43,007 nt of DNA from Atractiella rhizophila (GCA_021432655.1 MU271548.1:3203-46209); one strand, 5' to 3'. Shown: positions 20,642-23,355, numbered from the stretch's first letter. Translations and numbers: made by a program. Notes: generated by a model from the sequence alone, not told the origin.

Positions 20642-23355
20642 GGCTATTGTACTTCGTGCAGGAGACTTCGTCGTATTCGAGCTAAAACGGGTTACATGGT
20701 CGTGGGTTTCACGGACTGCTCTTCTTGCGGATTGTGAGTCAATTTTGCTACATCCGGTCTCATTCAATGTTTCCAATGCGAGTTCTGCTCTCAAGCATCA
20801 AGGGGCTTTCAAAGCTGCGAGATGGCATGGACCAGGGATGGACAGATCGGACGGAACGAGTACATGCAGCCTGAGAGATGGAAGTTTAGAAACCAGATGC
20901 CACTTGATCATAAGTGTATGATAAAGAGAAAAAGAGAACAAAACCATCAGAAATGTACAAGGACCAATGGTTGGACCTAAGCGGAGTAGATGGAGGAGGT
21001 GTAGGACAAAGGGTTTAAACGGTCTAGATGGGATTGTCGGGTTGGATTGATGGATGGCAGACATGTCCTTGCTGCGAGTTGAAGTCAAGGGTGAATTAGA
21101 CTTTCCGCTTCAAGTTGGTAGCCAGCTGCAGCAGTTCATCAGCACCATCCTTCGCAGGCGAAGAGGAAAACATACCCATTCGAGTCCTGTGCACCACGTA
21201 GCAAAATTAGACAAAGAGAAAGGGACAACATCAATATTCCACTCGGTTAGTGAAAGGCAAAGCGCACCCTCATAAAGACCGTCACCGCTCGTGGCACAAG
21301 TAGCCTGGATGTACCAGACCCTATTCCTCAACGAATGAAGGCCCAACTTATCGATGATTTCCGCGGCATTCATGGCGTTAGGCAAATCCTGCTTGTTGGC
21401 GAAGACGAGAAGGTGGGCGTCTCGGAGTTCGTCCTCGTTCAACATCCTTTGGAGTTCCTCTCTTGCCTCAGACACTCGCTCACGATCGTTGGAGTCGACG
21501 ACGAAGATGATTCCCTGAGTGTTTTGGAAGTCTATTGACACGTTCCACGTAAGAATGAACACAGGAGGAAACTCAGGGAGAACATACAATGCCTCCAGAG
21601 AGGACGGATCTTGTCTTGTCCTCCCACATCCCAAACGGTGAAGCTGATGTTCTTGTACTCGACCGTCTCGACATTAAATCCTTTACAAACCCCATCAGCC
21701 ACTCTTCCAACATCATGACGAGAAGAAGAGGAGCACCGATGGTAGGGATAGTAGTGACGATTTCGCCCAACTTCAATTTGTACAAGATGGTCGTCTTTCC
21801 GGCAGCAGCAAGACCGACCATAAGGATTCGAATCTCTTTCTTTCCGAAGAGACCAGGCACTATTAACAGCGCACCCCATCCCCATCCATCCGTCATGAGT
21901 AAGTCCCTTCTGACGTGTTGATAAGGGAGGGAGGAAGGGTGGGAACATACGGAGGCGGGAGAGTCCGAAGAGAAGGAGAAAGAGGCCAAAGACAAAGCAT
22001 GTCGAGCCAACTGGGTCTGCCCTCCATTCCGTAGGATTCATAGCTATTGTACTTCGTGCAGGAGACTTCGTCGTATTCGAGGTTACATGGTCGTGGGTTT
22101 CACGGACTGCTCTTCTTGCGGATTGTGAGTCAATTTTGCTACGTCCGGTCTCATTCAATGTTTCCAATGCGAGTTCTGCTGATAGTCTCAAGCATGAAGG
22201 GCTTTCAAAGCCGAGATGGCATGGACCAGGGATGGACAGATCGGAACGGAACGAGTACATGCAGCCTGAGAGATGGAAGTTTAGAAACCAGATGCCATTT
22301 GATCATAGGTGTATGATAAAGAGGAAAAGAGAACAAAACCATCAGAAATGTACGAGGACCACTGATTGGACCTAAGCGGAGTAGATGGAGGAGGTGTAGG
22401 ACAAAGGGTTTAAACGGTCTAGATGGGATTTGTCGGGTTGGATTGGTGGATGGCAGACGTGTCCTTGCTGCGAGTTGAAGTCAAGGGTGAATTAGACTTT
22501 CCGCTTCAAGTTGGTAGCCAGCTGCAGCAGTTCATCAGCACCATCCTTCGCAGGCGAAGAGGAAAACATACCCATTCGAGTCCTGTGCATCACGTAGCAA
22601 ATTAGACAAGGAGAAAGGGAAGAACATCAATATTCCACTCGGTTAGTGAAAGGCAAAGCGCACCCTCATAAAGACCGTCACCGCTCGTGGCACAAGTAGC
22701 CTGGATGTACCAGACCCTATTCCTCAACGAATGAAGGCCCAACTTGTCGGTGATTTCCGCGGCATTCATGGCGTTAGGCAGATCCTGCTTGTTGGCGAAG
22801 ACGAGGAGGTGGGCGTCTCGGAGTTCGTCCTCGTTCAACATCCTTTGGAGTTCCTCTCTTGCCTCAGACACTCGCTCACGATCGTTGGAGTCGACGACGA
22901 AGATGATTCCCTGGGTGTTTTGGAAGTCTATTGACACGTTCCACGTAAGAATGAACACAGGAGGAAACTCAGGGAGAACATACAATGCCTCCAGAGGGAC
23001 GGATCTTGTCTTGTCCTCCCACATCCCAAACGGTGAAGCTGATGTTCTTGTACTCGACCGTCTCCACATTAAATCCTTTACAAACCCCATCAACCACTCA
23101 TCCAACACCATGACGAGAAGAAGAGGCGCACCGATGGTAGGGATAGTAGTGACGATTTCGCCCAACTTCAATTTGTACAAGATGGTCGTCTTTCCGGCAG
23201 CATCAAGACCGACCATAAGGATTCGCATCTCTTTCTTTCCGAAGAGACCAGACACTATTAACAGCGCACCCCATCCCCATCCATCCGTCATGAGTAAGTC
23301 CCTTCTGACGTGTTGATAAGGGAGGGAGGAAGGGTGGGAACATACGGAGGCGGGA
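20561..23355. repeat. Head-to-tail tandem duplication, ~1.4-kb units (20561-21960 and 21961-23355)
   Basis: Both units start gagtccgaagagaaggagaaagaggcc and end gggaacatacggaggcggga. They are highly similar with scattered SNPs and indels. The junction has a 3-nt microhomology (tct on the minus strand). Confidence 0.97.
21096..22041 (-). CDS. Chimeric gene: antiporter N-terminus (27 aa, hydrophobic helix) fused in frame to ARF1 residues 6-end
   Basis: Spliced translation [83 protein letters not shown]. The frame is open and all introns are still GT-AG. Expression is unproven. Confidence 0.75.

Follow-up and report, generated by a model that had tools for sequence, protein, structure and literature searches.

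A transcribed antiporter-ARF1 chimeric gene at a tandem duplication in the root fungus Atractiella rhizophila, with signs of relaxed constraint

Results

Locus and structure of the chimeric gene

We analyzed a stretch of 43,007 nucleotides (nt) from Atractiella rhizophila (GCA_021432655.1 MU271548.1:3203-46209; hereafter the window, with positions counted from its first letter), comprising fungal DNA with short GT..AG introns, in which a chimeric gene lies between a gene for the small GTPase ARF1 and one for a Na+/H+ antiporter. Read along the minus strand, the order is ARF1 (hereafter copy A), about 450 nt of intergenic sequence, the chimera, the other copy of the intergenic stretch, and the true antiporter. 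The features are as follows.

22492 to 23370, minus strand: ARF1 copy A with the native Met-Gly2 start; ATG at 23370, stop at 22492, six exons (23370-23346, 23254-23132, 23075-22984, 22927-22664, 22582-22572 and 22521-22492)
22042 to 22491, minus strand: duplicated intergenic stretch (ARF1 3' flank and antiporter upstream region), serving as the chimera's upstream region
21951 to 22041, minus strand: chimera exon 1, made of antiporter codons 1-27 (22041-21961), then ARF1 codons 6-8 and one base (21960-21951)
21860 to 21950, minus strand: chimera intron 1, 91 nt, GT..AG
21737 to 21859, minus strand: chimera exon 2, which holds three non-synonymous changes particular to the chimera
21681 to 21736, minus strand: chimera intron 2, 56 nt, donor GTGCTC (+5 T)
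21680-21588, 21531-21268, 21186-21176 and 21125-21096, minus strand: chimera exons 3-6, with introns 3-5 between them and the stop at 21098-21096
20642 to 21095, minus strand: original intergenic stretch, from the chimera's stop to the start of the true antiporter
18702 to 20641, minus strand: true Na+/H+ antiporter, donor of the 27 N-terminal codons; 554 amino acids, five introns

The chimera arises where two copies of a unit of about 1.4 kb, on the minus strand, meet in tandem. Direct repeats extend over 20560-23296 with a spacing of 1391-1400 nt and 96-99% identity, and a blastn search with the unit 20561-21960 found exactly one other copy in the window, at 21961-23355 (96.45% identity over 1409 columns); Tandem Repeats Finder, for which the longest period was 500, found nothing. 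At the junction, 21960/21961, antiporter codon 27 passes in frame into ARF1 codon 6 (GGACTC/TCCCGC), with a microhomology of 3 nt (TCT) that may be assigned to either parent; an in-frame junction is expected by chance alone in one case of three. The stretch preceding the chimera (22042-22486) duplicates the one in front of the true antiporter (20642-21095), from which it differs by 9 missing nt (20681-20689 versus 22080/22081) and 6 extra nt at 22180-22185. The locus thus holds two direct copies with ends in adjacent same-strand genes, both parents retained and a novel junction, and duplicating such a segment in tandem is expected to give this very layout, of whole parents with a chimera between them.

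The first exon of the chimera translates without a stop. When its five introns are set at the positions they have in copy A, the spliced gene reads through 203 codons, free of frameshifts, and ends at the usual ARF stop (21096). Its one possible disabling lesion is a weakened splice donor at intron 2, where GTGCGC of copy A has become GTGCTC (place 21732), with loss of the +5 G. Of 10 reference introns, five from ARF1 copy A and five from the antiporter, 9 have this G, and T at +5 occurs in none; intron 2 of the chimera, if retained, would break the frame. An earlier sequence-only reading of the window had described the fusion, and its junction proved correct in every detail against the sequence, the repeats and the blastn result; the duplicated upstream region, the open spliced frame and the altered donor were likewise borne out. 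That reading overlooked a deletion in exon 3 of copy A and four amino-acid changes specific to the chimera, both of which are described below.

The first exon of the antiporter parent is 100% identical to protein P0122 (554 amino acids; source label Atractiella rhizophila), the whole of which is exactly rebuilt from 20641-18702 on the minus strand once five introns are removed, and which is a Na+/H+ exchanger (PF00999, 138.8 bits, matching from residue 21 onward).

Support from DNA and RNA runs

In one search, 24 public runs were found to hold part of 20500-23450, and four of these (X1, X3, X4 and X8) were aligned as Logan contigs on 20900-22290. X1 is a DNA-type run; X4 is classed as RNA by a guessed label, and its contigs lack introns. 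Contigs drop rare variants, and contig depth, which is a poor measure of expression, was not taken as copy number; uncovered stretches of X3, X4 and X8 were given no weight.

Direct evidence for the chimera comes from X4 record 19 (206 nt, depth 3.72), which joins 21799-21859 to 21951-22081 and so crosses the junction. The 91 nt of chimera intron 1 are precisely absent from it (joint 21859>21951, GT..AG on the minus strand), and it carries the chimera allele G at 21808, where the other, native letter has a depth of 19.2 of 22.9. Upstream, the same record reads G at 22042 and includes the 9 nt that, within the window, occur only before the true antiporter; either the duplicate of that strain is less diverged there, or the contig runs on a shared path. 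In X1, exact contigs cover chimera-specific stretches (record 1, 21001-21349; record 6, 21778-21881, spanning all three exon-2 changes; and record 7, 21960-22041), and the duplicate-specific A at 22042 is present (total depth 1172.6, of which G is 828.7). The X1 contigs branch toward the true antiporter at 21960 and toward the native ARF1 5' end at 21962. No X1 record among those listed bridges the junction with 31 letters on each side, such that the direct bridge comes from X4 only.

The chimera is therefore present in DNA and transcribed, and its first intron is spliced. The sequence-only reading was to fall if no reads spanned the junction, through misassembly or stacked haplotypes, or if this copy gave no spliced transcripts; X4 record 19, together with the chimera-specific alleles of X1, speaks against the former, and its missing intron and chimera allele against the latter. 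An RNA contig that crosses the junction with a chimera allele indicates that the gene is neither an assembly artefact nor a product of stacked haplotypes, and we regard it as almost certain that the chimera is real and transcribed.

Native ARF1 is also expressed. Exon 1 is spliced to exon 2 in X3, X4 and X8 (loose end at 21856), other joints in these runs remove introns 2, 3 and 4+5, and contigs of X4 and X8 keep exon 5, a micro-exon of 11 nt (21176-21186 in the chimera; 22572-22582 in copy A), between two removed introns. Contigs joining native exons 1 and 2 have depths of 4370.9 (X3), 19.2 (X4) and 10.4 (X8), against 3.72 for the chimeric contig of X4; native transcripts predominate over chimeric ones, in so far as contig depth measures expression. 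The native ARF1 mRNA in X4 and X8 is unlike both copies in the window, with chimera-copy letters at 20967, 20970 and 21350 and, in X4, a private C at 21449, which places the chimera in at least a second strain background.

Predicted product

Exons 2, 3 and 4 of the chimera score 48.9, 48.6 and 113.3 bits against the Pfam Arf family (PF00025; cut-off 22.3), and chimera exons reach 19.1 and 16.7 bits against SRPRB (PF09439), under its cut-off of 25. Pfam gave no hit, PF00999 included, for either chimera exon 1 (30 amino acids, P0121) or antiporter exon 1 (91 amino acids); the chimera retains only the antiporter's first helix. In protein searches, all of which were run with single exons or unspliced frames, exon 4 (87 amino acids) was up to 95% identical to ARFs of Pucciniomycotina among the best 120 matches listed, with 7975 of 8000 scored candidates at E<=0.001. 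The chimera nevertheless departs from a typical Arf1 on two counts. ARF codons 1-5, and with them the Met-Gly2 of class I Arfs that copy A retains, are gone, and Ala26 stands in place of the P-loop Asp, a defining residue of the Arf/Arl/Sar group.

The fused N-terminus is hydrophobic, with a core of about 15-17 residues (11-27) and a best 19-residue Kyte-Doolittle mean of 1.98 (residues 13-35), compared with 0.80 for the native ARF N-terminus. The segment is flanked by charges of -1 on its N side and +3 on its C side, which, by the positive-inside rule, favor a short N-terminus outside and a cytosolic GTPase domain. As judged from its sequence, the product would not be myristoylated at Gly2, would be missing the greater part of the amphipathic helix, and would instead carry a short N-terminal signal-anchor; the favored prediction places the GTPase domain in the cytosol, as in SR-beta. 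The short core might, alternatively, act as a cleavable signal peptide and send the domain to the lumen.

Divergence of the two copies

The copies differ by about 3.5%, at some 26 clean single sites, in a scrambled patch in intron 4 and through about nine indel events. The synonymous difference between them is 0.043 (pS) and the non-synonymous difference 0.0098. The sequence-only reading had called the chimera newborn, which sits poorly with this divergence and with the presence of the fusion in a strain whose native ARF1 differs from that of the window. The chimera carries all four amino-acid changes.

Codon 10, minus strand (21857): Ser to Pro
Codon 18, minus strand (21831): Met to Ile
Codon 26, minus strand (21808), P-loop: Asp to Ala, GCT versus GAT in copy A
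Codon 140, minus strand (21354): Thr to Ile

Among eight aligned relatives, the six that cover codons 18 and 26 all have Met18 and Asp26, all eight have Thr140, and none has Pro at codon 10. Asp26 is described as the key residue of the salt-bridge network that separates Arf/Arl/Sar from other GTPases, aligning with Gly12 of Ras (PMC3012027), and a mention elsewhere has it stabilizing the GDP site (PMC10579487). With lineages polarized by the runs, the chimera has gained four non-synonymous and one or two synonymous changes, versus zero and three or four in copy A (Fisher p 0.05-0.17), such that change on the chimera lineage appears roughly neutral, on small counts.

None of the runs shows a difference at 21831, 21410, 21518 or 21670, although copy A differs from the chimera at each of these places; at 21831, either the table of differences is incomplete or the native gene of the samples differs from copy A. 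X1 record 2 combines G at 21385 with A at 21410, a haplotype absent from the window.

As a separate observation, at 12 of the roughly 26 clean single sites (20900-21960 versus 22296-23355) the chimera copy has A on the plus strand where copy A has G, equivalent to coding T versus C, and several of these A/G differences fall at CpG (for example 21050 and 21354). This pattern could stem from deamination of methylated repeat DNA.

The state of copy A and a possible further ARF1

In the assembly, exon 3 of copy A has a deletion of 1 nt between 22996 and 22997 (92 versus 93 nt), and the frame consequently ends after about 108 codons; in the sequenced strain, the chimera may be the one ARF1 frame still intact at this locus. 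No deletion at the matching place, 21601, is found in X1, X3, X4 or X8. X4 record 17 and X8 record 20 cross exon 3 with no gaps, and loose ends of X3 at 21531 read an intact exon 3, with an agreement of just 0.97 among four contigs. As X3 also carries copy-A-specific alleles of the 3' untranslated region (UTR) at 20967 and 20970, these data suggest that, in the X3 sample at least, copy A is both transcribed and undamaged, and we judge a fixed deletion less likely than a mistake in the assembly or a private lesion. An alternative donor 4 nt downstream in copy A would restore the frame; we rejected it as a rescue as it replaces residues of switch 2.

X1 further holds a third variant of ARF intron 3 (21534-21565; five listed substitutions and a 1-nt gap, depth 132.2) that is absent from the window. 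A C>G variant at 21625, likewise absent from the window, occurs in X1 and in X3 (2389 of 17134 in X3); the depths of this extra variation in X1 are 132 and 75.8. Together, the divergent intron and this variant hint at a third ARF1 copy or allele elsewhere.

Searches for the fusion and other features of the window

The exon 4 search gave no match of 100% among those listed, in a collection clustered at 90% identity and hence silent on whether the gene has been annotated. Longer proteins sought with antiporter exon 1 numbered three among 413 candidates, none an ARF fusion. A search with the unspliced frame that runs over the junction scored 8000 candidates, of which 7789 reached E<=0.001; the 120 listed match ARF parts only, with the junction in none, a weak negative given a list saturated by ARF words. 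Twelve Logan, ENA and JGI ARF 'proteins' were all unspliced read-through frames and none was chimeric, and metagenome scans for two patterns, 25 nt of exon 2 and 22 nt of the junction, each gave zero matches.

Elsewhere in the window, a second tandem duplication lies at 3657-5760, with a unit of about 1070-1100 nt and pieces that are 86-100% identical, in a region strongly rich in C on the plus strand (guanine-cytosine skew about -0.35). Small tandem duplications have therefore occurred at least twice in these 43 kb, and the unit of about 1.1 kb suggests that they are not rare here. Among neighboring open frames, that at 35412-35996 (plus strand) matches TCP-1/cpn60 chaperonin (89.3 bits), and that at 17756-18376 (plus strand) scores 24.3 bits against MFS_1, under the cut-off of 33.4.

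Discussion

Origin and present state of the chimera

The layout of the locus is consistent with a microhomology-mediated tandem duplication of about 1.4 kb, which would have copied the segment from ARF1 codon 6 through antiporter codon 27. Such an event would leave both parents structurally whole, with ARF1 upstream and the antiporter downstream, and create a third, chimeric gene between them, which would thereby gain the antiporter's upstream region, start codon and first hydrophobic helix, fused in frame to ARF1 from codon 6. Since then, the chimera appears to have evolved without the constraint typical of ARF1, having lost the P-loop Asp and acquired a weakened splice donor. These two losses make it most likely that the chimera is a dispensable by-product, and it would probably be weakly expressed and heading toward a pseudogene, with normal Arf1 function supplied by copy A, the frameshift of which is probably an assembly error or private lesion, or by a further copy outside the window. 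With modest confidence, we thus read the chimera as an expressed by-product under relaxed constraint. Of the two fates offered by the sequence-only reading, that of a young pseudogene is the better fit, save that the open reading frame (ORF) itself is still intact. That of a constitutively tethered Arf draws on the hydrophobic N-terminal segment and the loss of Gly2, and is weakened by the loss of the P-loop Asp and by the four non-synonymous against one or two synonymous changes.

Several observations weigh against relaxed constraint and should temper it. The ORF has no indel in 612 nt, against about eight indel events in the roughly 788 noncoding nt of the unit; at equal rates about three would be expected in the chimeric ORF, and the probability of none is about 0.05. 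The lineage counts on which near-neutrality is judged are small. The fusion has persisted, being common to at least two strain backgrounds. Further, the X4 contig matches the window at 21808 and is listed with no difference at 21831. Both changes are thus probably old: Ala26, and probably Ile18, are shared by both backgrounds, and could be adaptive. In this assembly, moreover, the chimera is the only intact ARF1 frame at the locus, and, in the runs examined, no contig with chimera alleles extends over intron 2, the donor of which is altered.

Were the chimera instead a working, membrane-anchored Arf, the antiporter helix would tether the G domain permanently, as in SR-beta or Arl10, and the linker Pro, Ile18 and Ala26 would adapt a switch that no longer needs the cycle of myristoyl group and helix. 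The open ORF of 203 codons without indels, transcription with intron 1 spliced, presence in two strain backgrounds, and a hydrophobic segment whose mean and flanking charges favor a cytosolic G domain are all compatible with this, as is the repeated gain of N-terminal transmembrane anchors within the ARF family, Arf1 paralogs included, described in PMC8358228. Set against these are the near-neutral ratio of non-synonymous to synonymous change on the chimera lineage, the loss of the family-defining Asp and of the +5 G at the intron-2 donor, expression that rests on one low-depth contig, and a core short enough that it might be a cleavable signal leading to the lumen. On balance we consider a working anchored Arf rather unlikely. 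Doubtful, and slightly more so, is the fuller proposal that a single 1.4-kb duplication produced a functional, permanently anchored Arf1 paralog in which loss of Asp26 and gain of the linker Pro were early adaptive steps, offering a snapshot of how proteins like SR-beta and Arl10 originate.

Two further explanations concern the assembly more than the chimera itself. Copy A might truly be dead in this strain, with Arf1 activity supplied by the chimera or its frame; the assembled deletion in exon 3, with its stop after about 108 codons, would fit, X1 contigs end at 21600/21601 and may mark a variant there, and the X3 loose end at 21531 is imperfectly agreed upon by its four contigs. Yet the deletion is in none of the four runs, transcripts of native type with an intact exon 3 dominate X3, X4 and X8, X3 has the copy-A-specific 3' UTR alleles, and the extra variants of X1 and X3 (21625 C>G and the divergent intron 3) hint at a further copy; nor, given the role of myristoylation, would a chimera devoid of Gly2 and Asp26 be likely to replace an essential Arf1. 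We hold this to be very improbable. That the tandem arrangement is an artefact, of stacked haplotypes or of a misjoined collapsed repeat, is scarcely credible: the copies are indeed nearly the same, at least one indel of the assembly is suspicious, and X1 has haplotypes absent from the window (21385 G with 21410 A, record 2), but stacked haplotypes could not create a junction of antiporter codon 27 with ARF1 codon 6, which is moreover found in a spliced RNA contig of an independent run and is the point at which X1 contigs fork (exactly 21960/21962).

Whichever fate applies, the locus is instructive. If the chimera works, it would represent a dated and mechanistically transparent case in which one mutational step altered how a small GTPase attaches to membranes, in a family that has made the transition to an anchor several times and in which the origins of those cases are no longer traceable. 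If it is decaying, as we favor, it remains a record of a transcribed fungal chimera born of a small tandem duplication. The locus also poses a hazard to annotation, as the canonical ARF1 copy is frameshifted in the assembly while the chimera looks intact.

Comparison with known systems

Young chimeric genes formed by tandem duplication across two adjacent genes are a known class, in Drosophila and other organisms. The present gene resembles them in having breakpoints in two neighbors of the same orientation, in the retention of both parents, and in placing the body of the upstream gene behind the promoter and 5' end of its downstream neighbor. It differs in being a fungal case, and in that an essential, highly conserved GTPase has exchanged a lipid-anchor motif for a putative transmembrane helix. 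Another point of reference is the N-terminally truncated Arf1 used in biochemistry, which, like the chimera, lacks Gly2 and the start of the amphipathic helix, the element that links GTP binding to membrane binding; the chimera has lost the first five codons only, and has had them replaced by a hydrophobic helix.

Among natural relatives, an N-terminal transmembrane region is presented by Vargová et al. (2021, PMC8358228) as typical of SR-beta and Arl10, and as a separate gain in several further members of the ARF family, among them divergent chlorarachniophyte and pavlovophyte paralogs of Arf1. Like the chimera as predicted, SR-beta, as described there, combines an ARF-family G domain with an N-terminal transmembrane region in place of the myristoylated helix (PMC8358228). 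Unlike the chimera, it is an ancient, separate paralog, and the chimera falls below the SRPRB cut-off while far exceeding that of Arf: its G domain is that of Arf1, with exon 4 matching the fungal protein at about 95% identity, and nothing points to a role as partner of SR-alpha. Arl10 and the anchored Arf1 paralogs of chlorarachniophytes and Pavlovophyceae resemble it in having independently gained an N-terminal transmembrane region (PMC8358228), which in the chimera is a prediction. Those paralogs are conserved across clades, which implies function, whereas the chimera is seen in a single species, is young, has a helix whose donor, the neighboring antiporter, can be traced, and has changed in near-neutral fashion. 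The architecture of an anchored ARF is thus already known, and what is new here is a fungal instance in which both the donor helix and the mutational mechanism can be read.

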